Sequence record: QB031382.1
DNA: 64,000 nt
Reading direction: 5' to 3' (one strand)
DNA from: a phage
Every line of letters starts with the position of its first letter. Positions within the stretch are counted from its first letter, which is position 1. Below, piece by piece: positions 23,624-45,800 of this stretch. A program made the position numbers and the translations under genes. The notes under the pieces are model-generated. The model was not told the DNA's origin and ran no database searches. It saw only the letters and a program-made list of their open reading frames with translations.

Positions 23624-26600
23624 ATGGCTGATATTAAAGTTGTCAGAATTGAATCTCTTCCTGCCACTACCGCAGTGACAGAGGATGATTACCTGGTTGT
23701 TCAACAACCAGACCTGACCCGTCGTGTAAAAATTGGCGATGTTGTCCATGTGGATGGGACTGTTTCTCATGTAATCTCCTTTAAGGAAGGTGGTAAGTTA
23801 AACGGCCCAATGGATTTTGCCTACTTCGAAGAGGAAGACCTCTACCTGCGTTGGAAAGGCGAATTTCCACACACTGTGCCTGCACTGTCTTCACCGTACT
23901 CTGATGGTGGGATTACCGATGCTGCATGGATGGTATATACAGATCCGTCCTTAAGGGAGGAGCTGGAGTCTACCATTGGCGCATCTATGATCATGACAGC
24001 CGAAGGGCAGTCTGTCCAGGATGTAATGGATGTTACGGTTCAGACAGCCAACGATGCTAAAGCACTTGCACAGCGGGTAGATTTTGGTACAGTGCATACT
24101 GTAGGCGATGTTATTCACCTTGTCAACTTTGTTGGTCCTGCAGTTATTGAAGAGGGAAGAACTACTAACTACCCTTCTGTAGCAGCTGGTGAAAAATTTC
24201 TGAACGGTGTGGTATCTCGTCGTGATACTACGACTGTTGATGGTATTTTCCGTGGCGCTACCTCTGGAGCCATGTATACCATTGCAGTAACCAATGGTGT
24301 AGCAACAACAAAAAGAATAGCACTTCGTGATGAATTTAAACGCCTGGAGGCAAACAACCCAACAAGAACAGTTATCCGTGCTGGAGATGATTTAAACACG
24401 GCAGGGTACTTGCAGCTTGATGCAGCAGGCCGTTGGGGTATGTGGAACCAGCAAACAGCCTCGTGGCAACCTCTTGCTATAGAGCAAGGTGGTACAGGTG
24501 CCAGAGATGCCGCTGGAGTCCGTATCAATATCGGTGCTTTCTATAAGCAACGTGCAGCCCTTGAGCCAAATTTCAATATCAATAACTTGACTGGTAATCA
24601 GGATGGTGTATACTACCAGCCAATGACTGCTTATGCAACTGAGGCAAATGGTTACCCTGCAGGTTCTGGTGCTGGTCACTTGATTGTTTGGCAGAACAAT
24701 GCTAACGGCGGTACAGGTTGTCGTCAGGAATACTATCCATTCTCTAACGTAGATGTTTGGTATTTAAGAACCTATCAGGCCAACACAAACCAGTGGACTG
24801 CATGGCAGCCAATGGTCAGACCTCGTAACGATGATACCTTTAGATCGCACATCGGTCTCGGGTCTAGAAACTCCCCTACCTTCGGGCACCTTTACCTGTC
24901 TCAAAGTTCTGCTGATGTTAAGTCAGCATCCGGTATTGTTAACGGGGACAAATACAGCGCTGACGGTGTCCTTGAGCATGGATATAGGATCTACTCAGAG
25001 GTAAGAAACGACAATAAGGCTTGGTTAACAATCCACCTGCACAAAGGTGCAAAAGGATCTGAAACTCATCGGTATTTAGGATTCCGTGAAGATGGTGTGT
25101 TAGATTGTCCTAAGTACATGCAGGTTGGGGATCTTACTGGTCAGCTGACAAACTGGGGACTGGGAGAATGGATTCGTAGTTCAGGGGCAGAAAGAGGGTT
25201 CTGGGGTTCCAAGAAAGCCGCTAAGATGGTCGTCTGGGATGGCGGTATGGATGAATCCGGTAATGGTTCTCTAGAATGGGGTGTTTATAACAACCGGAAG
25301 GCCAAGTGGGAGCCTTTACCTCAAGCTGCAGGTGGTACAGGGGCTACAACCCTGGCAGATGCTCAGAGTCTGTTCAAAGTTCCTATAGCTGCGGGTGTCA
25401 AAGATTTCTTAACACTGCCAAGAACTGCAGGTATGGAAGATGGGAAATATTACCCAATCATCGTTAGAACAGATCCGTATTATGCTCCAGCAACTGGCAC
25501 CGATATTACCCTAGTCACCAGATTGTCATCTGGCGGTGACCCTATGAACTGCGCCACCTTACAGTGTCACTATAGAACTGGCGGTTGGACAGATAGAGGG
25601 GACTCTTTCTACGGGGTAGTGAATTTCTATCAAAATGAAAAAGCACTTCTTGGGATGGTTGCTCCAACAAGGGGTAAACAAGAGTATGTTGCTTTCTATG
25701 CAGAGGCTCGTGCTTTCCCTGTCAGCATATACGCAAGTAGAAATGTTGTCGAAGTGTTTACCAGAGAGCAAGATTATCAAGTCGGCTCTGTAACAAACAA
25801 TCAGGACGGTGTTAAGTTCGTTGCACCTCTCCAGTCAGCAGATTTAAATCTGGCTGTTCTCGGAGATAACAATACCAACACCAGACCTATTGTTGACTTC
25901 AAAGGTACCTCTGGGTTCTACACTGGCGGCGGCACACAGTGGCACTATATAGGCACTGCTGAACGCTATGCGGTGATGAGCAAAATGAACATGCCTAAAG
26001 TCGAACTATGGGCTGACGGTATTGACTATTTGTGCTACGGCAGTCCTAGAAAGGCGTTATTCTCTAATGCAGGATTTCAGTGTGCATCAGATGGGACAGA
26101 TGATCTGACTAACGGTACGTTTACCTCTAAATGCGGTAATGGTGCTGGACTTCAAGGTCAGGCAGAGTTCAGATCTACCCCAGAAGCTGGTCAAGTTATT
26201 GTTCGTGATGTTGTAGGTTCCGCTCACAGATTCTACAATTTCAACAAAGACGGTACTTTCTCGGCCCCTGGTGGTTTTGTATGCCACACAGGTGCAGACT
26301 GGAACAACCAGTTCGGAAATAATAATCCGTCCAAAATACTGGCTGGCAACGTCAACGGGCCTGAAGGTTCAATGGTTGTTGGCGGGTTGTCTGTGGTGTT
26401 TTCTGGAAACTTTGCTTTCCAGATGGCTGGTCGCCTTGATAGGTTGTATACCAGATCTATCGAGGGTGGTGCTCACAGACCGTGGAACAAGATCTTCTCA
26501 CACAGAGGTGCAGGTCTTGAGTCTACAGACCTAAACACTTACGATGGTACTTGTGAGGGCATCTATCACCAACATCTTGATGCCAACTCGACATCTGAAA

Positions 26601-27436
26601 GACATTACCCAGCACCGTACGCTGGTACTCTGATTGTTTACCAGAACAATGCAAACAATCCGAAAGGATGCGTACAGGAGTACATCACACGTTTTGGTGA
26701 CAGATATACTCGTGTTGGTAACATGGATAGAACTGGGACCACTTATATGTGGGAAGTTTGGCGGCACGATTCTGGTAAAGCTATTCAGTTACGCCCGAAT
26801 CGTAATGTTGATGAAACAGATAAAGAGCTGTGTATTCATGTTGGTGGTTCTGATAACCCCAGAAACAACACCAGCCTACCTGCTGATAATGCCAGATTAT
26901 TCTATTGGGGTAATGGCGCGGATAGGAAGAATGTGCTGGAGCTTCAGATAAGTGATAACTCAACAGCCGCCAGCTGGGTATTCCACTGTGGAGCTAAGGC
27001 AGATGAGGCTAAATCAAGATATTTTGCTGTCAACGGCACGGTAGAATGCACCACTGTTAGTCAAAGTTCTGACCGTGACCTGAAGGATAATATAGAGGTA
27101 ATACCTAACGCTCTGGAAGCAATTAGAAAGATGAAAGGCTATACCTACACCTTGAAAGAGAATGGTATGCCTTATGCAGGCGTGATTGCTCAAGAGGTTA
27201 TGGAAGCATTGCCAGAGGCAGTAGGGTCTTTCGTGAAAAGGAAGGAAATAGAAGGTCCTACTCAAGACGGTATTCCTCTGATGACCGAGGAAAGGTTCTA
27301 TAACGTTGACTACGCAGCTGTTACAGGCTTGCTTGTCCAGGTTTGCAGGGAACAGGATGATAAAATAACCGCCCTTGAGGAGCAGGTTAAAAAATTGACA
27401 GAGGTTGTTACTGGGTTGCAAGAGAAACTGAAGTAA
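23624..27436 (+). CDS. Tail fibre/spike with C-terminal intramolecular chaperone (peptidase S74-like) domain
   Basis: 1270 aa; N-terminal anchor shared with 20321. C-terminal DRDLKDNIEV ... YNVDYAAVTGLLVQVCREQDDKITALEEQVKKL matches the auto-cleaving chaperone domain pattern. Confidence 0.65.
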   Translation: MADIKVVRIESLPATTAVTEDDYLVVQQPDLTRRVKIGDVVHVDGTVSHVISFKEGGKLNGPMDFAYFEEEDLYLRWKGEFPHTVPALSSPYSDGGITDAAWMVYTDPSLREELESTIGASMIMTAEGQSVQDVMDVTVQTANDAKALAQRVDFGTVHTVGDVIHLVNFVGPAVIEEGRTTNYPSVAAGEKFLNGVVSRRDTTTVDGIFRGATSGAMYTIAVTNGVATTKRIALRDEFKRLEANNPTRTVIRAGDDLNTAGYLQLDAAGRWGMWNQQTASWQPLAIEQGGTGARDAAGVRINIGAFYKQRAALEPNFNINNLTGNQDGVYYQPMTAYATEANGYPAGSGAGHLIVWQNNANGGTGCRQEYYPFSNVDVWYLRTYQANTNQWTAWQPMVRPRNDDTFRSHIGLGSRNSPTFGHLYLSQSSADVKSASGIVNGDKYSADGVLEHGYRIYSEVRNDNKAWLTIHLHKGAKGSETHRYLGFREDGVLDCPKYMQVGDLTGQLTNWGLGEWIRSSGAERGFWGSKKAAKMVVWDGGMDESGNGSLEWGVYNNRKAKWEPLPQAAGGTGATTLADAQSLFKVPIAAGVKDFLTLPRTAGMEDGKYYPIIVRTDPYYAPATGTDITLVTRLSSGGDPMNCATLQCHYRTGGWTDRGDSFYGVVNFYQNEKALLGMVAPTRGKQEYVAFYAEARAFPVSIYASRNVVEVFTREQDYQVGSVTNNQDGVKFVAPLQSADLNLAVLGDNNTNTRPIVDFKGTSGFYTGGGTQWHYIGTAERYAVMSKMNMPKVELWADGIDYLCYGSPRKALFSNAGFQCASDGTDDLTNGTFTSKCGNGAGLQGQAEFRSTPEAGQVIVRDVVGSAHRFYNFNKDGTFSAPGGFVCHTGADWNNQFGNNNPSKILAGNVNGPEGSMVVGGLSVVFSGNFAFQMAGRLDRLYTRSIEGGAHRPWNKIFSHRGAGLESTDLNTYDGTCEGIYHQHLDANSTSERHYPAPYAGTLIVYQNNANNPKGCVQEYITRFGDRYTRVGNMDRTGTTYMWEVWRHDSGKAIQLRPNRNVDETDKELCIHVGGSDNPRNNTSLPADNARLFYWGNGADRKNVLELQISDNSTAASWVFHCGAKADEAKSRYFAVNGTVECTTVSQSSDRDLKDNIEVIPNALEAIRKMKGYTYTLKENGMPYAGVIAQEVMEALPEAVGSFVKRKEIEGPTQDGIPLMTEERFYNVDYAAVTGLLVQVCREQDDKITALEEQVKKLTEVVTGLQEKLK

Positions 27437-27535: not shown

Positions 27536-28126
27536 ATGTTTTTATGGGAAAGGCCTAGATACCTTCCAGATATTAGATTGGAGCTGCTGGCAGATATTGT
27601 TACGTTTAAAAGTCCGTTTACAGGTAAAACGCAAAAAGTAACCTATGCCACACCTAACTGGAAAGGCACTTTGACGGTTTCCAATATCAGCGAGTCACAG
27701 TTGCTAGAGCTTAAGAGCTTTGTTGATCAGGTGTATAAAGATGGAAACATCTTTCTTATTAAAACTTACGGTCACTCAGTTACAGCTAATGAGCCAATCG
27801 CCCTTGGGCCTACTGGTAACGACGATTTTTTGAAGACGGTTGGGTGGGAGCCAAACAGAGACATAGCCAGAGCTGGGGATAAAATATCTGTCAATGATGA
27901 ATTGAAAGTGGTAACAGCTCCAGTGCGTAGCGATGGTGTTGGGTCTGCTGTTATAGGCATATCTCCAAGACTTAGAAAACCTATTGCCGCAGGGGACACC
28001 ATGAAGATAATAACTCAATCTCCGAAGGGTAGGTTTCATATCAGAGATATTTATAAAATTAAGCAAAAAGTCGATGCTATGCAAAAAGGTGATAATATAG
28101 TTATCAACTTCTTTGAGGATTTCTAA
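27536..28126 (+). CDS. Tail tip assembly protein (lambda gpL/gpM-like or GTA-like module, putative)
   Basis: 196 aa; first gene of a four-gene block ending in the J-like protein. Confidence 0.35.
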   Translation: MFLWERPRYLPDIRLELLADIVTFKSPFTGKTQKVTYATPNWKGTLTVSNISESQLLELKSFVDQVYKDGNIFLIKTYGHSVTANEPIALGPTGNDDFLKTVGWEPNRDIARAGDKISVNDELKVVTAPVRSDGVGSAVIGISPRLRKPIAAGDTMKIITQSPKGRFHIRDIYKIKQKVDAMQKGDNIVINFFEDF

Positions 28127-28127
28127 G

Positions 28128-28679
28128 ATGATCAGAGCGCCATTAGATAATTTATTTCTTGAAAAGCTGGAGCTTGATGGTGTTGAGATCTTAATTGCTG
28201 CAAAGCTGGAGCTACCGACAGGAACTGTCAGGGTGTGCTCAGGCACTGGTGTTGTAGTAATTGAGGGGCAACATTTTATAGGGATAGGTGGATCAGCAAC
28301 ATTGACTGCTGTGTCTGAGAAAGATGCCACCAACTTCGGATCTGTGGTAGCAACATTGAACGGGTTTGATCCTAAATATGTTGGCGATCTGCTGAAGACG
28401 GAGTATTCTGGTTGCCGTGCCACACTGTATATCACCGCTATGGAGAGTGGTTTACCTGTTACAACTAATGGCTTGTTTGACGGCCTTATAACAGACATGG
28501 CTATTCAGACAGGGGAGAATAGTGCTTTGTCCATATCCATCTCTTCCATCTTCAACAGCTGGTTAAGAGGTTTTCCTTATCGATACACAGAGGAAAGCCA
28601 TAGCTCAAGAAACGATAATGACAGATTTTTTAAATATGTGGATCAGGTGGCAAGCCGCCCGATCATTTGGGAGGTTTAA
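28128..28679 (+). CDS. Tail tip assembly protein (putative)
   Basis: ATG 28128 after GAGGA; a TTG-initiated extension to 28113 is less likely. Confidence 0.35.
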   Translation: MIRAPLDNLFLEKLELDGVEILIAAKLELPTGTVRVCSGTGVVVIEGQHFIGIGGSATLTAVSEKDATNFGSVVATLNGFDPKYVGDLLKTEYSGCRATLYITAMESGLPVTTNGLFDGLITDMAIQTGENSALSISISSIFNSWLRGFPYRYTEESHSSRNDNDRFFKYVDQVASRPIIWEV

Positions 28680-29104
28680 TGAGCACACACCCTCGTTTAG
28701 TAGACTGGCAAGAAAGATTGTGGAAAGTGTTTGACGAAGAAGCCACCGTCCCGTTTGAATGGGGATTCCACGATTGCTGCACTTTTGCGGCTAAGTGTGT
28801 TGATGCCCAATACGGAACAGATTTTCTTTCTAACTTTGAAGGAACTTATAAAACAGAGTTGGAAAGCAAGAGATGGTGTATGCTTCGTTTCAAAACCACA
28901 CACCTGCCTACTGTTTTTGATCTCTTTTTGACTCGACTGGATACTCCTAAACAGGTTCAGCGTGGTGATATTGTTATTTTCGAAGGTCTGAACGGCCTCA
29001 CCGCTGGTGTGTTCTGGAACAACCAGATTTGGGCGAAAGGTGATAAAGGGATCTTTACGTTCGATATGAAAGATTCTATCGTTGTTGATGTCTGGAGGTA
29101 TTAA
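28679..29104 (+). CDS. NlpC/P60-family peptidase-like tail protein (lambda gpK C-domain-like)
   Basis: ATG 28679 after GGGAGG. FHDCCTF matches the catalytic-Cys region of NlpC/P60 tail-tip proteins. Immediately upstream of the J-like gene. Confidence 0.5.
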   Translation: MSTHPRLVDWQERLWKVFDEEATVPFEWGFHDCCTFAAKCVDAQYGTDFLSNFEGTYKTELESKRWCMLRFKTTHLPTVFDLFLTRLDTPKQVQRGDIVIFEGLNGLTAGVFWNNQIWAKGDKGIFTFDMKDSIVVDVWRY

Positions 29105-32100
29105 TGCCAATTGCAATGATTGATAACATCGTTGCTTCTGCAAGATCTTCAAGTTATGACTGGAACGCATCCAAGGCAGCTCTGGCTGACAGCCTGAACA
29201 CTGTTACCACCAGAACTCTGGATAAGATTTTCGAGGGCAACAAATCTTACAGAAGTCAGCAAGATAGACAAAAGCTTCTCAGATCTTCTGCTGCACCTTG
29301 CTCTGTAGTATATGGAAAGACACGCACATCTGGATTGCTTGCGTTTTTGGAGCAGGACAGGGACAGAACCCTTCATTGTGCTATTGTTCTTGCTAATCAT
29401 CCCTTGGAAGGCATAGAAGATATACTTATCGACGGTAATCCTATTTCTTCGTATGGTGATTTGGTATCATGGGAGTTACATAACGACAGGAAAACCTCTG
29501 ATCCTTTCATGGGCACACACTGCCCTTCATGGTCACCAGACATGATAGGTAGAGGGATCAGTTGGCTACGTGCCAGCTTCAAGTTCGACCCTAACAAGTT
29601 TCCTTTTGGGTTGCCAAACGTTACACTCGTTAAGGTTGGTAAAAAATGCTATGATCCTCGTATCAGTAAAGAGGTGTACACCAATAACGCATCCTTGGTG
29701 ATCCTGGACTATTTAAGAACGTACCTTAAATGTCCTGACGAAACCATCAACTGGGAGTCCTTTAAGGAGGCTGCCAACATATGCGACGAGGCGGTAAAAA
29801 ACGCTGACGGAACCAGTGAGCGACGTTACACCATTAACGGTGAGTTTGACATGGATGAGGCCCCAGCAAGTATTATGGCAGAAATGCTGAAAGCTTGCGG
29901 TGCAGACCTTAGTTATGTTGCTGGTAAGTATGGTTTGCTGGTTGGTGCATACTATGGTCCGGCAACAATGACATTGAGTGAGGACTGTGTCTGTGGTGAG
30001 GTTAAGATCTATCCGGAAGCCTCATTTGACAAAAGATCTAACACAATAACTGGCAGATTCACTAGTCCGACCAAAGGGTATTCTGAAACAGATTTCCCAT
30101 CAGTGTTTGTCCCAGAGTGGATAGAGAAGGATGGAGAAAGAAAGATAATCGATATAGACTATCGCTTTGTTACCAGTCCTTATCAAGCTCAACGTGTTTC
30201 TGCAATCTTCTTAAGACGTGCTAGAGCTGGCAGGATTATTGAAGTCACCTGCAATATGCGAGGTTTTAAATTTAAGCCTGGCCGTTACGTTACAATGAAT
30301 CTCCCAAGTATTGGTATAGTAGGCCAAGAAATGAGGGTTCTTGAATGGGAGTTCACCAAAAAGGGTGGTGTCAAGGTAAAACTTCGTCAAGATGCTAAAG
30401 AGTGGAATGATGCCACAGGGCAACTTCCGGATTCTGGTGATGTAGATATTCCGATATCTCCATCTGGTGTAGCTCAACCGCAAAACTTCAGATACTCCGT
30501 CCTCCAAGCTGGGGAAATAACTCACGGTGTTCTGGCTTGGGACAACGTTGGGACTTACGCTCAAAATATTGTGCAGGTAAGAAAGAACGGAGAGATTGTT
30601 TGGACAGCACAGACAGTTGAGCAGTTTGTCCGAGTAGAAGGCTTGACCAAAGGGTCATACACAGCAACCGTGGTTGCAACATCTTATAAAGGTGGTGTAT
30701 CTCCAGAAGCGTACTGCGAGTTTAACATTCAGGCACCTGAAGCTCCTGTTTCTGTAGAGGTTAAGCAGGGATACTTTGCTATCACCTTGATTCCACACAG
30801 CAGGGATTTAGCAAGTGTAAGCACCCAGTATGACTTTTGGACATCTGGTATGACAAGGTTGCCCGACACCAGCGATGCAACCGTTACTTCAAACGCCACC
30901 CGTATGGGTGTTGGTTCAACTTGGACATCCGAAGGTCTGCAGAACGATAAGGTTTATTATTGGTATATTCGAACCACAAACGCTTTTGGTAGCTCTCAGT
31001 TTGTAGAGTGTGCTGCACGCTGCTATACCTCCATTGAGGATTTGATGCCTCAGATAGATGCTGAATTCAAAAAGACAGAAACTTATAAAGAGTTGATGAG
31101 CACTTTGGATTCCTCTATTGAAGAGGTTGAAAATCGTGTCACAGAACTTAACAGGTACATGGATGGTAGAGTTGACGAGGCTTTTGACCACATGGAAGGT
31201 GAGTTCTCTAGAGTAGACAAGCTGTATGCTCAGTTGGGAGATAGGGTTGGAATATTCATCCAAGAAACCCACGACAACTTCCAGGACGTTAATGGAACGC
31301 TTACCACTCTAGATCAGAAACTGGTAGCCACTCAGAACAAGTTTGCAGATGATCTTTCTAAAGAAAGTGGCAAGCTTGCTTCTCTAATCCAGACCACTAA
31401 CAAAGCTACAACCGATCTGTTAAATCAGAAAACTGAAGCTTTGGACGAGAAGATTGTTTCAACCAGGGGTGAGTTGGAAGATGCTTTAGCGCAGGAAAGC
31501 TCTGAGCTGAACTCCCTGATTGTATCAACCAATAAAACGACTACAGATCTCCTTAATCGGAAAACCGAGGCTTTAGACAATAAGCTGACGGCAACGAAAG
31601 GTGAGTTGACCAACAATCTGCAGAATGAGAGTGCTAAACTATCGTCCTTGATTGAGTCAACCAACAAATCCACCACTGATCTTCTTAATAAGAAAACAGA
31701 GGCGTTGGATGAAAAACTGGTTGCTGCACAGGGCGAGTTGACTGAGCAGATCGGAGATGTTGAAAAAGGCTATCTGGCTGGTGATAAGAGCCTAGAGGGC
31801 AAGTTGAATACTCAAAGATCTGAGTTGGATGCGAGCATTCTGAGCACTAACCAGGCCACTGTGGACTTGCTGAACAGAACTTCTGAGACTCTTGACCAGA
31901 AGATTAGCCAGACCAACGCCACAGTGTCCAAAAACTACACCACGCTTGATGGTAAGATAAACACCGCCAAGTCTGATCTTAATACGTTGATTTCTACCAC
32001 CAACAAGGCCACAACTGACCTGTTGAATCAGAAAACGGCAGCTTTGACTGAGCAGTTAACCACTGCTAAAGGGCAGATTACAACCAACACCAATAATATT

Positions 32101-33249
32101 ACTGGGTTGGACAATAAGCTGACTCAGACGAAGAAAGACTTGTCTGCGAATATTTCTGAAACTAATAACGCCACTGTTGATCTGATTAACGGCACAGCGT
32201 CAGCTATTCGTCAAGAACTTGCTGTTGCTAAGCAGGAGATCATTGATGGTGTTGGCGATGTGTCCGAGATCAGGGCTGCAGTAGCTACAACAGCTAAGGC
32301 TGTGACCGACTTAGAGGGTAAAGTAAATGCTCAGTGGGGTACAAAAATACAGGTAGACTCCGCAGGGAATAAATATGTTGCAGGTATCCAGTTGGGGATG
32401 GAAGGGTCTGGGGGCCAAGTTCAATCCTACTTCATGGTTAGTGCAAACAATTTTGCGGTATACAATCCTGGCAATGGAACAGCAACCCTTGCTTTCGCAA
32501 TCAAGAACAACCAAGCGTTCTTGAAAGACGCTTTTATAGAGAATGGCACGATCTCCTCTGCCAAGATCGCACAAGAAATTTCGTCAAACAACTACGATGG
32601 CAACGGGTACCATAAATACGGTTGGTATATTAACAAGAACGGGCACGCCCAATTTATGGATGTGTGGGTGAAAGGCAACATCAACGCCAGTTCTGGTAAC
32701 TTCACAGGGGCAGTTAACGCCACTAGTGGTACCTTCCGTGGGGATGTTTATGCCAATAATGGTAGCTTTAGAGGCACCATAGATGCAACCGGAGGTACCT
32801 TCCGTGGTCGTGTAGAAGCTTCTGTTATCCGTGCCAACCAGTTCGAAGGTGCAATTGTTGCACACAGGACTTACGGGGATTGTGCTCCAGTATATAACTC
32901 TCAGCAAAGGGTTTGCCGTTGGAGGTGGAGATACGTAGATAACGTTTCAGGTCAGGGTAAGAACGTAACATTCTTCTTTAAACTGAACGGTACTCTTGCC
33001 AGCTCCCAACTGAATGCATGGATAGCTGGTCATCAGATCCTTGCTGGCAAGAAGTATTTTAACGACAACAACGGCATGTGTGCGGTAGGGATAACAGGTC
33101 TGGGTGAACAAACTATAGACATTGTTATCGAGATTTACACACCGTGGTCAACGTCGAGCGTGACAGGTGTCACAATCTCCTGTCCCACTGTGATAGTAAG
33201 TCGTTCAAACTCTAGCTTCCAGGGACCTTGGAACGAGTCTCACAACTAA
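29104..33249 (+). CDS. Host specificity / central tail fibre protein, lambda gpJ-like, with expanded coiled-coil repeats
   Basis: Segments parallel lambda J as recalled: APEAPVSVEVKQGYFAITLIPH, YYWYIRTTNAFGSSQFVE, KYVAGIQLGMEGSGGQVQSYFMVSANNFAVYNP, NINASSGNFTGAVNATSGTFRG. Confidence 0.7.
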   Translation: MPIAMIDNIVASARSSSYDWNASKAALADSLNTVTTRTLDKIFEGNKSYRSQQDRQKLLRSSAAPCSVVYGKTRTSGLLAFLEQDRDRTLHCAIVLANHPLEGIEDILIDGNPISSYGDLVSWELHNDRKTSDPFMGTHCPSWSPDMIGRGISWLRASFKFDPNKFPFGLPNVTLVKVGKKCYDPRISKEVYTNNASLVILDYLRTYLKCPDETINWESFKEAANICDEAVKNADGTSERRYTINGEFDMDEAPASIMAEMLKACGADLSYVAGKYGLLVGAYYGPATMTLSEDCVCGEVKIYPEASFDKRSNTITGRFTSPTKGYSETDFPSVFVPEWIEKDGERKIIDIDYRFVTSPYQAQRVSAIFLRRARAGRIIEVTCNMRGFKFKPGRYVTMNLPSIGIVGQEMRVLEWEFTKKGGVKVKLRQDAKEWNDATGQLPDSGDVDIPISPSGVAQPQNFRYSVLQAGEITHGVLAWDNVGTYAQNIVQVRKNGEIVWTAQTVEQFVRVEGLTKGSYTATVVATSYKGGVSPEAYCEFNIQAPEAPVSVEVKQGYFAITLIPHSRDLASVSTQYDFWTSGMTRLPDTSDATVTSNATRMGVGSTWTSEGLQNDKVYYWYIRTTNAFGSSQFVECAARCYTSIEDLMPQIDAEFKKTETYKELMSTLDSSIEEVENRVTELNRYMDGRVDEAFDHMEGEFSRVDKLYAQLGDRVGIFIQETHDNFQDVNGTLTTLDQKLVATQNKFADDLSKESGKLASLIQTTNKATTDLLNQKTEALDEKIVSTRGELEDALAQESSELNSLIVSTNKTTTDLLNRKTEALDNKLTATKGELTNNLQNESAKLSSLIESTNKSTTDLLNKKTEALDEKLVAAQGELTEQIGDVEKGYLAGDKSLEGKLNTQRSELDASILSTNQATVDLLNRTSETLDQKISQTNATVSKNYTTLDGKINTAKSDLNTLISTTNKATTDLLNQKTAALTEQLTTAKGQITTNTNNITGLDNKLTQTKKDLSANISETNNATVDLINGTASAIRQELAVAKQEIIDGVGDVSEIRAAVATTAKAVTDLEGKVNAQWGTKIQVDSAGNKYVAGIQLGMEGSGGQVQSYFMVSANNFAVYNPGNGTATLAFAIKNNQAFLKDAFIENGTISSAKIAQEISSNNYDGNGYHKYGWYINKNGHAQFMDVWVKGNINASSGNFTGAVNATSGTFRGDVYANNGSFRGTIDATGGTFRGRVEASVIRANQFEGAIVAHRTYGDCAPVYNSQQRVCRWRWRYVDNVSGQGKNVTFFFKLNGTLASSQLNAWIAGHQILAGKKYFNDNNGMCAVGITGLGEQTIDIVIEIYTPWSTSSVTGVTISCPTVIVSRSNSSFQGPWNESHN
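31351..32240 (+). repeat. In-frame tandem repeats (period ~123 nt) encoding coiled-coil modules in the J-like protein
   Basis: At least three clear copies (from 31351, 31474, 31597) of L..SLI.STNK.TTDLLN.KTEALD.KL..T.GEL, then degenerate copies. Confidence 0.7.
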
Positions 33250-33257
33250 CCTTTAAA

Positions 33258-33284
33258 GCCCCGCTTCGGCGGGGTTTATTTTTA
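33258..33284 (+). terminator. Intrinsic terminator
   Basis: CCCCGC / TTCG / GCGGGG followed by TTTATTTTTA. The 16-mer is identical to that at 59420-59435. Confidence 0.65.
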
Positions 33285-33292
33285 TGCTCAGA

Positions 33293-33321
33293 TTGACTAT
33301 TGTTACAAAATTTGGTAAAAT
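33293..33321 (+). promoter_or_regulatory. Sigma70-like promoter
   Basis: TTGACT, 17-nt spacer, TGGTAAAAT. Confidence 0.55.
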
Positions 33322-33354
33322 ACCTTGTAGAGATTTTCATACCGGAGGAGTGAC

Positions 33355-34845
33355 GTGGCTAAGTATGGATTGACAGAGGCTGGTTTCGTTATACCAACCC
33401 TAAATGACCTAATCGTTGAAACTAAGCAAAGCCTGATCCGTGCTTTTGGCGAAAACTTCAACGTACAGAGTAACTCCGTTGCAGATAAGCTGACCACTAT
33501 CTTCAACGAGCGAGAGTATCAACTTATTCTTATGGCAGCATCTGTATACGCATCACAGACGCTGTATGGGGCAGAAGGTATTTACCTAGATGAGCTTCTT
33601 GGAAGACAGGGTATTTACCGAAGAGGCCGTTCTAAATCATCAGGTACCTGCCAGTTGACAATCAACACAACTGTGCCGTACAATATGATTTATGATTCCA
33701 AAACTTATACGCTGGACAGTGGCAACTTTGTTCTTAGCAACGATGTGCAAGTAGCAGGGAATCTTATTGCTCACAGAATAAATGCTCCAGACCTAAGGAT
33801 TGGGAAATACAACTTCCAAATTACCAACCAGACAGATGGAAGTATCAAAACAAAAAGCCTGGTTTTAACAGATAAGTCTCTGGACTCTTCTGATTTGCCA
33901 AGCTTTTACGGAGAGATTAAGCAATTCATTGTCGATAATACAACCCTGTTGAACGACGATTTGATTCAGATCGATATGTTGACAGGGACGTTGTGGATAG
34001 GGTACAATTCAAATCTTGATCAAGTTGGACTTAATAGCAGAGTAGATTTCAGAGTATCCCCGATTGTAGGGGAAAGAACTATCACACTGGATGTTATCGC
34101 TAACGAGGCTGGTGAGCTGTCAAGAGAAGCAGAAACCGTGACAACAATGTCGCCTACTCCTAGTGGATTTATCAAGCTTACCAACCGAGAAAGATTCAAT
34201 GAGGGCAGGGATGTTGAGAAGGACTCAGAGTATCGCTTAAGAGCTTCCAGCACTAAACAGTTAACATCTAAAGCTACCCGTCCTGCAATCCTTAGCGCTG
34301 TAAGCGAGGTGAAAGGTGTTGAGAAAGTAAGAGTGTTCTCTAACAACACCGATAAAACGGATGCGAAAGGTATACCACCTTATAAGTTTCAAGTGGTGGT
34401 GTTCGGTGGTGCAACAGAGGATATCTGTCAGGCGCTGTATCAAACCATAGCTTGCACAAACAGAACTTATGGGAATATCTTCTACGATATTACCACATCA
34501 GACGGTCAGACTGAAAGGATTTATTATTCTAAGGCAAACACTTACCGCCTGGATATGAGAATTACCTACTCAGGTGCTGCGCTTTCTACTACCGAAAAAG
34601 ATGCCATTACAGAGGCTCTTTTGCAGGTTGTTAACGGCTTGGATGTTGCCGATACGTTGTACAATATCCAATTGGTCGGTGCTGCATCTGCTGCTGTGTC
34701 GATAGGCAGATTTAATAGACTGGTAATTCAAGTTAAACCTGTGGGAGCTTCTGATGAAGCTTACACTACAAACGACATTGTTGCGAACATGACCGAGGTG
34801 TTTGACCTCGATGAAAGTAATATAACTTTCCAACAAACTATTTAA
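33355..34845 (+). CDS. Baseplate J-like protein (P2 gpJ / T4 gp6 family, putative)
   Basis: GTG start after GGAGGAG. AEGIYLDELLGRQGIYRRGRSKSSGTCQL resembles the Baseplate_J N-terminal signature. Confidence 0.45.
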   Translation: MAKYGLTEAGFVIPTLNDLIVETKQSLIRAFGENFNVQSNSVADKLTTIFNEREYQLILMAASVYASQTLYGAEGIYLDELLGRQGIYRRGRSKSSGTCQLTINTTVPYNMIYDSKTYTLDSGNFVLSNDVQVAGNLIAHRINAPDLRIGKYNFQITNQTDGSIKTKSLVLTDKSLDSSDLPSFYGEIKQFIVDNTTLLNDDLIQIDMLTGTLWIGYNSNLDQVGLNSRVDFRVSPIVGERTITLDVIANEAGELSREAETVTTMSPTPSGFIKLTNRERFNEGRDVEKDSEYRLRASSTKQLTSKATRPAILSAVSEVKGVEKVRVFSNNTDKTDAKGIPPYKFQVVVFGGATEDICQALYQTIACTNRTYGNIFYDITTSDGQTERIYYSKANTYRLDMRITYSGAALSTTEKDAITEALLQVVNGLDVADTLYNIQLVGAASAAVSIGRFNRLVIQVKPVGASDEAYTTNDIVANMTEVFDLDESNITFQQTI

Positions 34846-34856
34846 GGTGGCGGGAT

Positions 34857-35543
34857 ATGGCAGAGATTAAGTCGGATGTTAACCACATCCACACTCTGCC
34901 AGATTTTGTTCAGGGGGGTCTTGACTACCTGCCTGGAGATTTTCTGGCTGAGAAGGTTAATTTAGTCACATTCTTAACCGTGTACCTTAAAAGGTTGGAG
35001 GATGTTGATAAGATGCTGGTAGGTTTGGCTGAAGGAAGATTGCTTAACAATGCCAGCGGAAGATACCTTGACGAAGTTGGTAATCAACTTGGTATTCTTA
35101 GGAATGGACTTTCAGATGCTGATTTTCGTGCCACACTAATTATTCAGCAGGCCGCAGCATCAAGGGGCGGGACTCGCGAAGATGTCATCTCCACCTTGCG
35201 ACAATTGTTCGGAAGAGACAATTTCGATACGTGGAAAGGAGACAACTTCAGGCTTGACATAAATATTAGAAAAACTTGCTTTGACATATTGCAGTCTATT
35301 GATCAGATCTTAGACATGCTACCATTGCCTTGTCATTTGCGTCTTACAGAATCGCAAGGGCAAGCTTTTGGTTTTGAAGGGGACTCTACAGCTCTTGGCT
35401 TCGGATCGGTGTGGGAAGAAAACCAATTCGGAGTTGGTGGGCTGGCTACTTTGTTGTATGTTCCTGACGTAAGACCTGACTGGGACACCACAACCATTTA
35501 TTGTGAAAGTATTACAGTAAACGCAACTAGACAGGAGGGTTAA
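34857..35543 (+). CDS. Baseplate or tail protein (P2 gpI-like, putative)
   Basis: 228-aa ORF directly after the baseplate-J-like gene. Confidence 0.35.
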   Translation: MAEIKSDVNHIHTLPDFVQGGLDYLPGDFLAEKVNLVTFLTVYLKRLEDVDKMLVGLAEGRLLNNASGRYLDEVGNQLGILRNGLSDADFRATLIIQQAAASRGGTREDVISTLRQLFGRDNFDTWKGDNFRLDINIRKTCFDILQSIDQILDMLPLPCHLRLTESQGQAFGFEGDSTALGFGSVWEENQFGVGGLATLLYVPDVRPDWDTTTIYCESITVNATRQEG

Positions 35544-37627: not shown

Positions 37628-38668
37628 ATGTCAAAACCTAGTTTTCCATTAGAGATTTGGGCAGAGGAGGATCAGGTTCTGCCTAACACCCACAGACAGA
37701 ACAGGCTACGCCCGATTGATGATTTGTGGAGAAAAGGTTGGGATCTTGGTCAAAAGCCATCCTGTGAAGAACTTAACTATATTTTCAATATGCTCGGGAC
37801 TTGGGCAAAATACATTGCTGACGAGCAGATCCCCGCTCAAGAAGGCCGCTATCTGGTACGTGATAATAACTTGAGTGATCTTTTGAACATCCCTGTTGCC
37901 CGTAGAAACCTTGGAATTATTACTAAGGAAGAGGCAGACGCCAGGTATGTAAAAGTTACAGGTGATACAATGACAGGCCCATTGGGTTTGCAACGTATCA
38001 ACTTTAAAGCTGCCGAGACAGATAAGGCTTGGATAGAGACAACTATTGGCCCAGATAAGACAACTCTTGACTTTGGGTTAAGTGATAATATTGGAGCGTT
38101 CGATGATGGTGGCACATCTACAGTGGATGCGTTCCGTTGGAGATTCCAGCCAACTCAGCCGGACATTAACCCAGAGTTCACTTTAATGTACCTGAACGCA
38201 ATCACGGCTAATCGTGCGTTGTTGAAAGTGGTGGGCAATGTTGAAGTTGTTGATAACATGCGGTGTAATAACCTCACCATTAGTAGCACAGCAACATTCA
38301 CCAACTGCAATGTAGCCAGTCAGTTGACAGCTGGGTCAGTATATGTCAATGGCGGTGCAAGTTGTGATAGTATGGTTGTAAGAAGCCAGCATTGTGTTGT
38401 CGGTAACAGAAATGTGGTGCGCTCTGTGAATGGAGTGACGGCTAACGGCAACGGCGATGTAACGATCACCATCCTACAGACAGGTGTACAGGATATCAGA
38501 ATCGGTGCAAGACTTGTTGATGGTGTTTCTGAATCTCCAGTTCGCAACGGCTACGTTGTCACAGGTTGGCATTTTGGTGATAAAAAAGAGATGCGTGGTT
38601 CAACCTACTGGGCAGGGCCTTTACAAAAACTTGTAAATGGTCAATGGATCACTGTTAATTATGCGTAG
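37628..38668 (+). CDS. Tail fibre protein (paralog A)
   Basis: Shares PLEIWA..D, LKGWD, GDTMTG, LQRI, FRWRFQP, LNAITANRA, RNVVR.VNG and VNGQWIT with the 39684 product. Confidence 0.65.
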   Translation: MSKPSFPLEIWAEEDQVLPNTHRQNRLRPIDDLWRKGWDLGQKPSCEELNYIFNMLGTWAKYIADEQIPAQEGRYLVRDNNLSDLLNIPVARRNLGIITKEEADARYVKVTGDTMTGPLGLQRINFKAAETDKAWIETTIGPDKTTLDFGLSDNIGAFDDGGTSTVDAFRWRFQPTQPDINPEFTLMYLNAITANRALLKVVGNVEVVDNMRCNNLTISSTATFTNCNVASQLTAGSVYVNGGASCDSMVVRSQHCVVGNRNVVRSVNGVTANGNGDVTITILQTGVQDIRIGARLVDGVSESPVRNGYVVTGWHFGDKKEMRGSTYWAGPLQKLVNGQWITVNYA

Positions 38669-38682
38669 ATCGGAGGACTAGC

Positions 38683-39267
38683 ATGAAAATACTTCAAGAG
38701 TTTAAGCTTTACCAGCCGGGATCTGGCGAATACCACACCAACAAAGGTACCAAGGAGCTGACTCCTCAGGAGGTTGAGGATTACACGGCATACACTGGAT
38801 ATTTTTTACGTAATGATGATGGTGATTGGTATGTGCAATCACGAACACTACGACAAGAAAATCCAGGCTGTATCTTCCTACTTGTTGACGAGAAGGGTAT
38901 TCTTAAGACATCTACAGAAGAACCTGATGCCTTGTGGCCTGCTCCAGGTCTTCGTGTGGTTATCGCCAAAAAAGAAGAGGTACCAGAAAACATTATGCTC
39001 CACCACGACGCTTTGCGTTTAGTTGGTGATGAATTTGTCACAGACAATGAATTCTTTGTTCAACAGGCAGAGGGTGTCATAGAGACAGAACTTGCTTGGG
39101 CTACTGCTAGAATTGGTGCCTATCAAGACATGATTGACCTTGAATACGATCTCACTGATGACCAAAAACGCAACATCAGAGATTTGAAAATGTACAGGGT
39201 AAAACTTCTTGAAATAGATACATCTAAAGCCCCTGACATTTTCTTCCCGGAACGACCTACCCTCTAA
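38683..39267 (+). CDS. Tail fibre assembly chaperone (Tfa-like)
   Basis: C-terminus DQKRNIRDLKMYRVKLLEIDTSKAPDIFFPERP matches the conserved Tfa C-terminal motif. Directly downstream of a fibre gene. Confidence 0.55.
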   Translation: MKILQEFKLYQPGSGEYHTNKGTKELTPQEVEDYTAYTGYFLRNDDGDWYVQSRTLRQENPGCIFLLVDEKGILKTSTEEPDALWPAPGLRVVIAKKEEVPENIMLHHDALRLVGDEFVTDNEFFVQQAEGVIETELAWATARIGAYQDMIDLEYDLTDDQKRNIRDLKMYRVKLLEIDTSKAPDIFFPERPTL

Positions 39268-39652: not shown

Positions 39653-39683
39653 AGTCCTTAAGGAATTTTCTCAGGAGAACGTG

Positions 39684-40727
39684 ATGACTAAACCAGTTAT
39701 CCCTCTTGATATTTGGGCCAATCAGGATGTTGTGCTTGAAAATACAGGAGAGTTGAACAAATCTCAACCGAACAAAGAAGAGAGATTGAAAGGTTGGGAT
39801 ATGACACAAAGGATAGCATGTGAAGTTGTTAACTTTGAACTCCACATGCTCTCTGCGTGGCTAAAGCATTTAACAGAAGATGTTGTCCCAGGATGGGATA
39901 ATAGATTCTTAAGGGTCACTAATAATCTGGCAGACGTTCCAGACAAAGCTGCTGCACGTCAAGTTCTCAATGTATACTCGCCTGAAGAAATGGATGACCT
40001 TTATGTTGACAAGGCTGGAGACACAATGATCCAGACTCAAACTTTAGGTCTTCAAAGAATCGAGTTTGCATCCGCGTCAACAGATAGTGCGGCGATATAC
40101 ACCACTATAACTCCAGACAAGACGATGATGGATTTCTGGATTATGGACAACATCGGTGGTGCTGACGGCACAGACCTTGATGATCCCTCTCACCAAATAG
40201 ACGGTTTCCGTTGGAGATTTCAACCTTCTGGTGGGCAGCCTGTGTTTTCGGCTATGAAGCTCAATGCTATAACTGCCAACCGTGCAAGACTGGCTATCCA
40301 AGGAAATCTTGAATGCAATGATGCAAAAAGCTCCTCTGCAAATGCTAATGCGGTAACGATACCTAGAGCCACTGTTAATGGACAACAATCCTGCGGCAGC
40401 GCTCAAATAGATGGAAGAGTAGATTGTAACGATAAAACCGCCAGGGGTCAATATGCAACAGTTGGTGGAAGAAACGTGGTCCGCAGGGTAAATGGTAGTA
40501 GCGCAGACAGTAGTGGTAACCTTACTATTCCTATGCCTAGTAGGGGTGTTGAAGATGTAAGGATAGCAAACCGTTTCAGAACCACCTACAGAGAATCAAG
40601 AGTATACCCTGGGCATGTAATGTGCTCCGGCAATTACGCCTATAAACACCCGTATCAGGGCGACTATTGGACTGGAGCTATTCAAAAATTTGTAAACGGT
40701 CAATGGATCACCATATCTTATGCTTAA
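39684..40727 (+). CDS. Tail fibre protein (paralog B)
   Basis: ATG 39684 after AGGAG (GTG 39681 alternative). Shares the motif set with paralog A but diverges in the central and C-terminal regions. Confidence 0.65.
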   Translation: MTKPVIPLDIWANQDVVLENTGELNKSQPNKEERLKGWDMTQRIACEVVNFELHMLSAWLKHLTEDVVPGWDNRFLRVTNNLADVPDKAAARQVLNVYSPEEMDDLYVDKAGDTMIQTQTLGLQRIEFASASTDSAAIYTTITPDKTMMDFWIMDNIGGADGTDLDDPSHQIDGFRWRFQPSGGQPVFSAMKLNAITANRARLAIQGNLECNDAKSSSANANAVTIPRATVNGQQSCGSAQIDGRVDCNDKTARGQYATVGGRNVVRRVNGSSADSSGNLTIPMPSRGVEDVRIANRFRTTYRESRVYPGHVMCSGNYAYKHPYQGDYWTGAIQKFVNGQWITISYA

Positions 40728-42806: not shown

Positions 42807-45800
42807 ATGCTTCCAATCCCTTTGCTAAAACTTGGTCGTCATTTCCTCGATAAGAGGGGTGGAATTAAGGAACTTGCTGTTCTGTCATACCCAATAGACA
42901 ACAGTGATGGCACAAGCACTACAGTACCCTATGTAAATAGCTTAGCTATACTTTTTGATGATGGTCAACTTAATATCACGGGCTATAACAGGTTCGGAGA
43001 GTGCCGTACTGGGGATCTTGACACGATAAACTATCCCAACGAGGCTGCCTGGAACGTTGATCATGTGTGGAGAGCAGACCGTGCGTTTGTAATCCGAACT
43101 TTTGATAATCAGTTTTTCTACATCGGCTGCACTGCAGGGCTTATTGGGTCTGATGCCGCAGGCGGTAATGATGTTTGTGTAAGAGAGTGGACACCTCTTC
43201 CTGAACAGATCGTTAAAGGGTTGCACCTTGACACCCACCCAGAGCGCCTTATTGAGGTGATGGGTGGTATTAACAACACTGTCTGGGTTATTGCAGAGGC
43301 AGAAGGCACTGGTATACTGAACCTGTACGGGTCTGGTAACAACACCTACGGATCTTTGCATGTAGATAAAAATCAGCATGCAACCCCTGTAAAGATCGGT
43401 GAGACATCGGAAAATCCTGAAACAGGCCCTTGGAAAAACCCAAGCATTAACTGCGAGGTGCATGACAACTCTGTTATTTTCGGCGGTCCTAGAGGTTTCT
43501 GGATTGCTGGATACGATTTTCTGAGAAACAACAGTAGAAACGACCTTGTTTGGCCTCCTGTGCAGATTACTCGTAACGATTTGAGGGGCATTCCTGCAGA
43601 TGAGGAGTGGAAAGGGTTTATGTGCGGTCCTAACGGGGCAATAATTGCCACGCAGAGGATGCACACACCCAATGACCAGCAGCTTGTTAACGTATTCTAC
43701 GGGCAAAACGTCTGGGGAGATGACACATGGCGTTCCTTAAATATCACCTACACCCATGAGGTGATAATGGCTCGTGGATACGGCACAAGTGGCATTTTCT
43801 TCAATAATGGCACTAAGCAGTATCGTGGATTCTCTCGCAACTTGTGTAATGATATTGGCGCACAATCTGCAAACAATAGCCCTAGGGCCAATTTTATCCA
43901 CTATCAAGCTCTTGCCACAGCCAAATACGTTGAGCAACGCCTCCCAGTTAGCTGGACAGAGAGTGTTTATTTCCAAGGCATCCACAGGGAAGGTTTCTTA
44001 GGAACCTTTACTGTTGTTAATGGTAAACTTTGGTGGTCAGGCATCCCAAGGGGAAATTTTGCAGGATCTAATAACCTGTTTGGCGGCAGACTTAATAGCC
44101 AAGGGTTCACAGAGGTCCCCGAGAATTGGTATAAAAATGTCCCAGTAGACAGTTGGGGTGTTGAGGATATTTTCGACGTTAACGGTGTTAGCAGCGTTAG
44201 CAATATTTACATTGGTGATACGGTCAAGATGAAATTGAAGCCTCAGCCAGAAGGGGCCACGTTCATTATTGACAAGATTGAACTGGTAAATGCTGCAGGT
44301 ACGGTTGTTACAGATGCAAATTACCAATTCTCTACCAACTGGAACCACGGCGGGGCCAACGAAGTTATTGTTACCCAGTATAACAGGAATGTTAACAGGC
44401 GTGGCCTGTACTCTGTAAAAATAACCTATCATGACAAACATGGCACAGGAAGAACCCACACAACAAGGAATTTGAACTGGAACACTATCGTCCCAGCGTA
44501 TCCGTCTGATGGTAAATGGCATACTGTAGGTAGAAACAAACAGTTCCATGTTAACGACACTGTATACTTTGGACTAAATGCGGCCCAGCCTGCAGTAGAA
44601 GGGGATACATCGTATATGGTCAGACTCCATAGAATGGATGCTGGATCAGTAACTTATGATGTTACCCAAGAGATTTATAATCAGCGACGAAATACCTATG
44701 ATAACTTGGTGCAGACACAGGCCCTATGGGAGTTCAACCCAAACGGAAGGGGTGGTAAAATGTTGCAGGTCAACGAACAAAACGGGACATCGTTGACTGT
44801 TCACGAACACCCAAACCCTTGGCCTGATCCTGGGAAACCGAATTCAGGTGCTCGTACACTAAAAATTGTCAGCCATGACGTAGGATATTTCGGAATACGT
44901 TGGGAAGCCACAGTAAGATATGCCGACGGGACAACAAACAATATTGGGATTACCCTTGGCGGCACCAGTGAGGATAACTCACTGAAAATTGCCTACACTC
45001 CTAGAGGTATTTCTATTGATAATATGGATGTTGTTCGCAATGGTTACGGCGATGTGAATGTCAAAGTTACTCTTGGCGAGCACCTTGGTGGGGAAAGGAT
45101 TATCATGTATGCTTTTGATCATGATCCGCGCACCAATGGAACTTATGCAAATCAGGCATGGAGTTACCTAATAAATGCACCTGAGCCGAATACTAAAGAG
45201 TTCTACTATGGTATGAAGCGAGATGTGTGCAAGAAAACAGGAACACATGACTGGATTGCTATCTGCGTTAAAGATGAGCGCACAGCTTGGGATGAGCCTG
45301 TTAACAGATGGTTCATAGGTATTCCTACCAGAAGTGATAAGTATGTCGCAGAGTATATTGTATGCATGGGCGGTACCAACCTGAACATGTGTTGGAACGA
45401 AGATGTAAACAAATACTCTACTTATGACTATATGAGGGATTATGCTTGTAATCTGTGGTTTAGCCAAACTACAGGTTACCCTCCGCGTCAGGCGAGAGTA
45501 AATCCTGCAATCTTCACAGATACGCAGGTTTTCTTGACAAAACAGGCTAACGAGGTTCAGACCTTTAAGAACAAATACGACCCTAACAAGTGGTTCTACA
45601 ACTGTTCCGGAGCAATATTCTGGGGACCTGCTGAACTGCCTGATACAGGTTCTTGCTTAGGGGCTGCAACCTATGGCAGTGACTATATTATGGGTCAGGT
45701 CAAGAAGTACAAGATAATTCCTGGACCTGCAATTCTAGGTAATGCTGTTGACCCGTACATAAATTTCGCAGCTATACATGCTAATATGGATGGAGGGAGA

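Follow-up and report, generated by a model that had tools for sequence, protein, structure and literature searches.

A 44-residue repeat and its copy-number alleles in the predicted helical shaft of a J-like tail fibre from an rV5-like phage

What does an array of protein repeats do in a tail fibre at the place where phage lambda has only a short linker, and what depends on the number of copies? The question is raised by the gene of a J-like tail fibre protein in a 64,000-nucleotide (nt) stretch of phage DNA (sequence record QB031382.1; this whole stretch is called the window below), in which the original prediction had placed an expanded coiled-coil array of repeats. Rather than a novel type of system, the protein is an ordinary J-like fibre whose stalk varies in length and can be swapped. 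The explanation that we favour, with a probability of roughly 0.6, is that the repeats build a helical shaft of about 430 residues in a presumably trimeric J-like fibre and that this shaft would be a spacer setting the reach of the tip. Already documented are the presence of the protein in databases, its family, its place in the J architecture and the fact that J-like fibres can have long coiled coils that vary in length. Added here are a hendecad unit of 44 residues, three discrete copy-number alleles, indels that preserve the helical phase, and a shaft, not a tip, that is hypervariable and exchangeable; neither a three-allele copy-number polymorphism nor cassette exchange is described in the literature on J-like fibres consulted for comparison.

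Identity and domains of the J-like protein

The gene belongs to an rV5-like Vequintavirus, i.e., a myophage. The gene has 99.4% nt identity to that of the 'tip attachment protein J' of Escherichia phage BP9, and 117 phage records, nearly all of them Vequintavirus, match the gene. The orthologous rV5 gp37, a protein of 1279 amino acids (aa), was found in virions (PMC3606486). The main parts of the gene are the following.

29104..33249, plus strand: J-like tail fibre coding sequence, 1381 aa, orthologue of rV5 gp37 (from the open reading frame list, 4146 nt)
30580..31059, plus strand: two domains similar to immunoglobulin (Ig) or fibronectin type III (FNIII) domains ahead of the shaft, Ig_J (partial, aa 493-545) and Ig_J_second (aa 547-652), found with Pfam; this part aligns to lambda J 666-850
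31033..32340, plus strand: predicted alpha-helical shaft, aa 644-1079, equivalent to the alpha-helical shaft (AHS) of lambda gpJ and about 8 times longer (AlphaFold2 (AF2) monomer, proline-free linker, hydrophobic period)
32278..32700, plus strand: Phage_Tail_Tip domain (PF09327), aa 1059-1199, homologous to the central straight fibre (beta-prism) of lambda gpJ (Pfam; PDB 9wca, 8xcj and 8iyk, E about 1e-24)

Two of the Pfam matches are well above their cut-offs, namely Ig_J_second (PF24489; 106 bits, cut-off 27) and Phage_Tail_Tip (133 bits, cut-off 22); the partial Ig_J match (PF24421) scores 24.5 bits and stays under the cut-off of 29. Together with PHROG 31, 'central tail fiber J' (E=6e-160), and with PDB matches to 8iyk, 8xcj and 9wca (E 1e-24 to 1e-28), lambda gpJ structures among them, Ig_J_second and Phage_Tail_Tip bear out the description of the host protein as J-like. 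PHROG 31 and PHROG 5616 span aa 44-502, and a Pfam search yields no match to PF13550 (Phage-tail_3, the N-terminal hub) at E<=0.1; over its first 850 residues, the protein shares 50% identity with the J protein of phage Seurat, which itself matches PF13550 weakly. The C-terminal approximately 150 aa are a domain different from the LamB-binding PF12421 (Ig_GpJ_C) of lambda: this family, which scores 247 bits in lambda J, is not detected by Pfam in the J-like protein.

The repeat array

Self-correlation of aa 741-1050 under BLOSUM62 peaks at 0.94 at a lag of 44 residues, compared with a maximum of 0.26 in 200 shuffles, so that the periodicity is far above chance; a secondary signal is present at lag 22. 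At the DNA level, repeat families of 60-98 nt recur with spacings of 132, 132, 186 and 153 nt. The unit is 44 aa (132 nt) long and carries the motif LxxLIxxTNKATTDLLN, which begins at aa 758, 802, 846, 908, 959 and 1013 (nt 31375, 31507, 31639, 31825, 31978 and 32140). A hidden Markov model of the unit, used as a profile against the J-like protein, identifies the unit six times in full and once as a half, the latter at aa 730-757:

31291..31374, plus strand: half unit, aa 730-757, equivalent to the unit's C-terminal half (unit profile positions 17-44, independent E-value 1.4e-4; DNA repeat family)
31375..31506, plus strand: unit 1, aa 758-801, 44 aa, missing in the rV5-type and FFH2-type alleles (motif, profile, DNA repeats, 88-aa gap against RudolfGeigy)
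31507..31638, plus strand: unit 2, aa 802-845, 44 aa, missing in the rV5-type and FFH2-type alleles (motif, profile, DNA repeats, alignment)
31639..31824, plus strand: unit 3, aa 846-907, 62 aa, i.e., 44 aa plus an 18-aa insertion; of all units, it matches the first one of the rV5 type best (73% nt identity; motif, profile)
31825..31977, plus strand: unit 4, aa 908-958, 51 aa (motif, profile)
31978..32139, plus strand: unit 5, aa 959-1012, 54 aa (motif, profile)
32140..32271, plus strand: unit 6, the last, aa 1013-1056, running into the beta-prism domain (motif, profile)

The array thus extends over about 31291-32271 and forms the middle part of the longer helical shaft (31033-32340). The original prediction, which reported at least three well-preserved repeats of 41 aa plus degenerate copies at 31351-32240 (aa 750-1045), was right in that the repeats are real, that three are well preserved and the later ones degenerate, and that the interval covers most of the array; the length of the unit and the limits of the array have to be corrected. 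Units 1-3 share 57-61% of their residues in pairwise comparison and are 57-60% identical in DNA, and units 4-6 are 27-55% identical; insertions of 7-18 residues in the later part of the array lead to the spacings of 62, 51 and 54 aa. Because the nucleotide identity is so low, Tandem Repeats Finder detects no array in this region when run on 29000-35000, and protein-level methods are needed to see it. Seven alignment columns are invariant across the six units, three of which (N9, D14 and N17) lie off the hendecad core described below; the polar positions T8, N9, T12, D14 and N17 recur in all units.

Helical periodicity and predicted fold

The AF2 monomer model has helices at aa 644-890, 896-1050 and 1053-1079, i.e., about 430 nearly unbroken helical residues, with a predicted local distance difference test score (pLDDT) of 70-83 across the repeat region. 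There are no prolines in the 406-aa linker from Ig_J_second to Phage_Tail_Tip. Apart from a minor break at G-D 1051-1052, the predicted helix is interrupted once:

31768..31788, plus strand: segment GYLAGDK, aa 889-895, the sole substantial predicted helix break, within the 18-aa insertion of unit 3 (AF2 break at aa 891-895, model residues 252-256)

The rV5-type allele conserves this segment, which may act as a hinge.

The hydrophobic power of the whole shaft peaks at a period of 3.64 residues (286, compared with 102 for the 99th percentile of shuffles) and is 3.9 at 3.5 residues. For units 1-3, the peak is at 3.68, with a power of 132 at 3.667 (11/3) and of 0.2 at 3.5. The unit consists of four hendecads (44 = 4 x 11), and in the 12 hendecads of units 1-3, position e is always isoleucine or leucine, position a is leucine in 9 and threonine in 3, and position d is leucine in 6. 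The canonical heptad (3.5-residue) periodicity is absent from the shaft except for a heptad-like segment at aa 644-687 (period 3.48). Hence, the coiled coil that the original prediction had taken to be of the canonical heptad type has to be replaced by one with hendecad (11/3) periodicity, and given that a period of about 3.64 is close to that of an undistorted helix, a nearly straight helical bundle is predicted rather than a left-handed heptad coiled coil.

The shaft resembles known hendecad coiled coils (PMC4786415) in its period of 3.64-3.68, in its unit of 4 x 11 residues and in the presence of leucine or isoleucine at a, d and e. It differs from them in a polar position h and in the heptad-like N-terminal 44 residues, and the straight or slightly right-handed geometry is a prediction from the amino acid sequence. 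Another possible comparison is with alpha/beta coiled coils, in which beta-layers form where 2 or 6 residues are inserted into a heptad frame (nonads or hexads) at motifs such as MATKDD. The length of the unit can be written as 44 = 6x7+2, and KATTDLLN loosely resembles MATKDDIAN (PMC4786415); the 11-residue hydrophobic spacing runs cleanly through the motif (L1-T12-L23, I5-L16-I27), and the segment is helical in the AF2 monomer.

The weak Pfam matches, namely Apolipoprotein A1/A4/E (PF01442), Spectrin_7, DUF7217, DUF1664, FliK and PhaP, are all under the curated cut-offs and appear to be generic matches to amphipathic helices. Membership in the Apolipoprotein A1/A4/E family in particular was rejected, given the score of 32 bits against a cut-off of 90 and the lack of prolines, as opposed to the proline-punctuated 22-mers of that family.

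If the weak similarity to Apolipoprotein (E=1.2e-7), Spectrin_7 and ApoLp-III, along with the 11/22-residue periodicity that apolipoproteins also have, reflected a common fold, the helices would fold back into compact antiparallel bundles of the apolipoprotein or spectrin kind, and the repeat number would change the bulk of the fibre and not its reach. Such a fold is extremely unlikely. Besides the score far below the cut-off, the region contains no proline and no regular loop-forming motif; the AF2 monomer helices of 247 and 155 residues are separated by a single break, not by one turn per unit; in lambda J, the homologous segment consists of three parallel helices bundled along the trimer axis (PMC11101478); and the AF2-multimer models of the orthologue from the BASEL phages are described as elongated (PMC12143355).

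Comparison with lambda gpJ and other J-like fibres

The position of the shaft can be defined from its homologous flanks. Residues 497-684 of the J-like protein align with lambda J 666-850 and residues 1064-1228 with lambda J 849-990, and about 380 residues of the J-like protein have no lambda counterpart. In lambda gpJ, the order of domains is HDs-FNIII-1-FNIII-2-AHS-CSF-RBD, i.e., hub domains, two FNIII domains, AHS, central straight fibre and receptor-binding domain (PMC11101478), and the AHS is a three-helix bundle of 53 residues, 809-861 (PMC11101478; PDB 8iyk, 8xci). Judging from the flanking alignments, the repeat array is an expanded AHS of the lambda type, in agreement with the original proposal that it occupies the place of the short linker of lambda J. 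Both shafts are preceded by the second FNIII/Ig domain and followed by the beta-prism of Phage_Tail_Tip; otherwise, however, they are distinct. The lambda AHS has 53 residues compared with about 430 here, its hydrophobic period is about 3.4-3.5 compared with about 3.64, and the 44-aa internal repeats belong to the shaft described here. Furthermore, the lambda AHS refolds upon receptor binding and thereby opens the tail tip, and there is no sign that a 64-nm rod could do so; the receptor-binding domain family of lambda gpJ is the PF12421 not detected here, and the present fibre comes from a myophage that encodes a baseplate hub of its own.

Linker lengths, measured between the end of Ig_J_second (or of the final fn3 domain) and the beginning of Phage_Tail_Tip, span a wide range among J-like proteins:

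lambda: 26 aa
KurtStettler: 55 aa
Seurat: 89 aa
Vid5: 91 aa
FFH2 type: 225 aa
Mishu: about 280 aa
rV5 type: 304 aa
the 1381-aa protein (long allele): 406 aa
Klebsiella K50 type: about 447 aa

Long-shaft J-like fibres (RBPseg TC9/TC5, Mishu of the Tempevirinae, the Klebsiella phage K50 type, PDB 9l9p chain S) share with the present protein a long helical linker between FNIII and Phage_Tail_Tip, and the hydrophobic period is 3.58 in Mishu and 3.63 in K50. Two of them appear to possess internal repeats of their own that are unrelated to the 44-aa unit: the top self-correlation lag in the K50 shaft is 40 aa, albeit weak (0.12), and 9l9p_S contains a duplicated segment of 33 aa, as counted by eye in the alignment. 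The unit profile does not find the 44-aa TNKATTDLLN unit in fibres of the Mishu, K50 and 9l9p_S types, and in a search against 1.84 billion representative proteins only Vequintavirus J clusters match. This confinement indicates that the unit arose in the Vequintavirus lineage and that the expansions elsewhere are independent. An AF2-multimer survey of the BASEL phages likewise reports that the coiled coils of J-like fibres vary in length and that the Vequintavirinae have a fibre with a large coiled-coil domain (PMC12143355).

Copy-number alleles among relatives

A homologue search with aa 726-1059 alone returned three fragments and missed the query's own cluster, with coiled-coil words probably swamping the search, and is uninformative on copy number. 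Among 140 proteins, only three architectures are found:

Long allele: six units, spacings 44, 44, 62, 51 and 54
rV5 type (RudolfGeigy, 1279 aa): four units, spacings 62, 51 and 54
FFH2 type (1199 aa): three units, spacings 44 and 47

Relatives thus differ in repeat number (6, 4 and 3 units), and there is no single fixed count. In the alignment of the rV5 type with the long allele, a gap of 88 aa corresponds to exactly two 44-aa units, and in addition a 14-aa upstream segment is missing. The J protein of Seuratvirus siphophages has zero units and is 50% identical in both flanks. A five-unit form is found neither among the 140 proteins nor among the members listed of the 129-member 90% cluster of the long allele. 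The long allele (97-100% identity) is present in about 13 of the 72 phage records that match the shaft, and within each of the three classes the proteins are 97-100% conserved across many isolates. The indels between alleles, of 4, 11, 14, 18, 47 and 88 aa, amount to 1.10, 3.03, 3.86, 4.96, 12.95 and 24.24 helical turns, respectively (these values depend on the alignment). Given that the indels are close to whole helical turns, the hydrophobic seam is preserved.

The copy-number alleles also bear on the possibility that the repeats are docking or register nodes, in which case the polar cluster would bind a virion component (a side fibre or a chaperone) or form a buried layer that fixes the register of the trimer, the copy number would determine valency or the fidelity of assembly, and length would come as a side effect. 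The invariance of N9, D14 and N17 outside the core is more constraint than a plain spacer requires, and the fibre apparatus of the Vequintaviruses is unusually complex and includes multiple fibres (PMC8594841, PMC12143355). However, the match of the unit profile to Vequintavirus J only, among the 1.84 billion representatives, leaves no partner co-occurrence to exploit, and alleles with three, four and six nodes share the same neighbour genes, which argues against fixed stoichiometric docking. We regard this function of the repeats as unlikely.

Synonymous divergence between units

In units 1-3, the proportion of differing sites is 0.73-0.89 for synonymous sites (pS), i.e., saturated, and 0.27-0.30 for nonsynonymous sites (pN), so that the original observation of a conserved protein with diverged synonymous sites holds. 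The longest identical run shared by units is 7-9 nt. At identical residues, the number of shared codons is 10, 9 and 13, and the numbers expected from the codon usage of the gene are 9.6, 9.2 and 9.4 (standard deviation about 2.4).

These counts are directly relevant to the selection against recombinational collapse that the original prediction had put forward. Shared runs of at most 7-9 nt, and a DNA identity (57-60%) as low as the protein identity (57-61%), fit active selection for synonymous divergence; but the shared codons behave as random draws, with no excess avoidance, as expected from saturation with age, and since alleles differ by whole units, units have in fact been gained or lost. 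Active selection of this kind is therefore very unlikely. Ancient duplication combined with purifying selection on the protein explains the synonymous saturation, so that no special selective mechanism is needed. No younger arrays with a synonymous excess over the flanking sequence were found; there are only the three old architectures.

The array is inert to homologous recombination today. It is not a recombination-prone variable-number tandem repeat (VNTR) or contingency-type array either: it has no Tandem Repeats Finder array, its DNA identity is 57-60%, and its three architectures are fixed. The protein alignment hints that the first unit of the rV5 type could be a crossover hybrid of units 1 and 3; this candidate was rejected, with the DNA of that unit being nearest to unit 3 throughout (73%, compared with 61% and 59%). 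From these DNA comparisons, a recent unequal crossover in the rV5-type allele is not supported.

Trimeric or dimeric fibrous stalks in which the repeat number sets the length, differs among serotypes or strains and affects receptor access include the adenovirus fibre shaft with its pseudo-repeats, the trimeric autotransporter adhesins and the streptococcal M protein. The adenovirus shaft is a beta-spiral, and the repeats of the M protein are near-identical in DNA and recombine often; in contrast to the latter, the units of the J shaft are saturated at synonymous sites and their copy number is stable within an allele class.

The shaft as an exchangeable cassette

The variation among alleles is concentrated in one segment of the gene:

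31174..32340, plus strand: hypervariable shaft cassette with sharp edges, 45-80% nt identity between alleles (sliding identity, flank and allele matrices, 16-kb profile)

Outside the cassette, over the first two thirds and the last third of the J gene, the three alleles share 90-100% of their sequence, and the C-terminal third reaches 98-100%, as opposed to 45-80% in the shaft. The identity of long-allele shafts is 0.97-1.0 with one another and 0.70 with those of short alleles, and this grouping is not followed by the flanks. In their N-terminal part, the long-allele phages ECP32 and NHEP1 are closer to a short-allele phage (about 0.97) than to the J-like gene of the window (about 0.94; for ECP32, 0.971 compared with 0.941), and the C-terminal part of the J-like gene of the window is 0.984 identical to that of RudolfGeigy, with a short allele, and 0.904 to that of ECP32, with a long one. 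This incongruence of shaft alleles and flanks indicates recombinational exchange of the shaft between genomes that are otherwise nearly identical, with the conserved flanks as the place of homologous recombination.

The same pattern of a divergent shaft (45-80%) next to a tip that is not divergent (98-100% in the C-terminal third) would also be produced if the polymorphism came from evasion of a host defence or some other selective agent that senses the shaft, or from drift of a spacer constrained only in its core, with recombination shuffling the alleles and length being incidental. Indels of whole helical turns are expected if only the seam is constrained, the record metadata show no visible correlation with host, and the discussion of the RBPseg study mentions defence systems that target central fibres (PMC12143355). 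The pN of 0.27-0.30 under saturated pS, however, is a sign of purifying selection and not of free drift, and the three discrete architectures are 97-100% conserved within a class over many isolates. An origin of the alleles by evasion or drift appears improbable on balance.

A more elaborate scenario, which we consider doubtful, combines several of these elements: the shaft would be an exchangeable length cassette, with three old alleles maintained by balancing selection and swapped to match the surface layers of the host (O-antigen, capsule) or to evade a factor that recognizes the shaft, the receptor-binding tip being conserved and the whole fibre belonging, as an extra fibre, to a siphophage tail-tip module co-opted by a myophage. 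If this were true, the length of the stalk and not the specificity of the tip would be the evolving host-range variable of the J-like fibre.

The 16-kb profile contains a single other hypervariable segment, 25200-27275 (plus strand), in the C-terminal half of a 1270-aa tail fibre gene (23624-27436), where nt identity to close relatives is 47-90% compared with 94-99% around it. A linkage between the shaft allele and the tip of this upstream fibre was considered and rejected: in BP9, the shaft is 100% identical and the fibre tip is different. The segment 29676-34175 is 100% identical to BP9 with flanks at 90-97%, which suggests a recent recombination tract covering the greater part of the J gene and reaching into the beginning of the gene that follows.

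Predicted function

Under the explanation that we favour, by homology with the lambda gpJ trimer, three parallel helices, one from each chain, would be bundled into a nearly straight rod, and the rod would be a spacer that fixes the distance of the conserved C-terminal tip (the beta-prism and the C-terminal domain) from the particle. At 0.15 nm per residue, the predicted rod length would be about 64 nm for the long allele, about 50 nm for the rV5 type and about 38 nm for the FFH2 type, so that about 13 nm of the long allele would be due to its two extra units. The polar cluster conserved in the units (T8, N9, T12, D14 and N17) may fix the register of the chains or provide a contact surface, and the alleles, which are old given their saturated synonymous sites, would move between near-identical genomes via recombination in the conserved flanks. 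The original suggestion that the repeat number could set the length of the fibre fits the comparative data, and a role of length in adsorption may follow from it. Thin fibres of 70 nm have been seen on rV5 virions (PMC3606486); the rV5-type protein would have roughly this size.

Several observations weigh against this explanation. The copy number is constant within each allele class, so that the array is not a fast-tuning ruler, and record names reveal no obvious link between allele and host, with both the rV5 type and the FFH2 type coming from K-12 and O157:H7 isolations. Position h of the hendecads is polar (threonine, lysine or glutamate), which leaves a thinner core than the textbook hendecad bundle has. 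With a mean pLDDT of 64 and a predicted template modelling score (pTM) of 0.26, the AF2 monomer model is of moderate confidence, and the trimer is taken over from lambda. As to the place of the protein in the virion, cryo-electron microscopy of two Vequintavirinae from BASEL resolved only 3 of the 9 annotated fibres (PMC12143355), and the structure papers on phiTE (PMC11972413) and phi92 (PMC13450770) do not mention a J-like component.

The host range of therapeutic Escherichia coli phages of the rV5 group is usually framed in terms of fibre tips, and here the tip is nearly invariant and the stalk variable. If length matters for adsorption, the unit boundaries would be natural splice points for fibres of defined reach, each unit contributing about 6.6 nm; otherwise, the locus remains a clear example of a rod that accepts only indels of whole helical turns.

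Neighbouring genes and minor observations

The genomic context of the J-like gene is a more striking side observation: a complete siphophage tail-tip module in a myophage. At 27536-33249 (plus strand), genes for Dit-like, L-like, K-like and J-like proteins are syntenic with gp16-19 of siphophage Seurat, with identities of 32, 40, 46 and 50%, respectively. The gene upstream of this module encodes a tail fibre and not a tape measure protein, and the same myophage has a tape measure (14187-16523), a baseplate hub (17907-18905) and wedge genes of its own. Elsewhere in the window, two paralogous short tail fibre genes, 37628-38668 and 39681-40727 (both on the plus strand and both PHROG 4465), flank a tail fibre assembly gene (38683-39267); such paired short tail fibres fit the description of the Vequintavirinae sensu stricto (PMC8594841). 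An open reading frame of 1875 aa at 42807-48434 (plus strand) is a full-length match to PHROG 15684, of unknown function, with a C-terminal match to an Ig-domain structural protein.

Eighteen records of the MG0656xx series that are named 'Campylobacter phage' (host Campylobacter jejuni) are 93-97% identical to the J-like gene, and this host attribution looks doubtful. Finally, the J-like protein contains a second, short repeat after Phage_Tail_Tip, at 32683-32814 (plus strand), which consists of four 11-aa units (NASSGNFTGAV, NATSGTFRGDV, YANNGSFRGTI and DATGGTFRGRV). These are presumably rungs of the beta-prism, and Seuratvirus J proteins have a 22-aa gap at this repeat, i.e., two units fewer.

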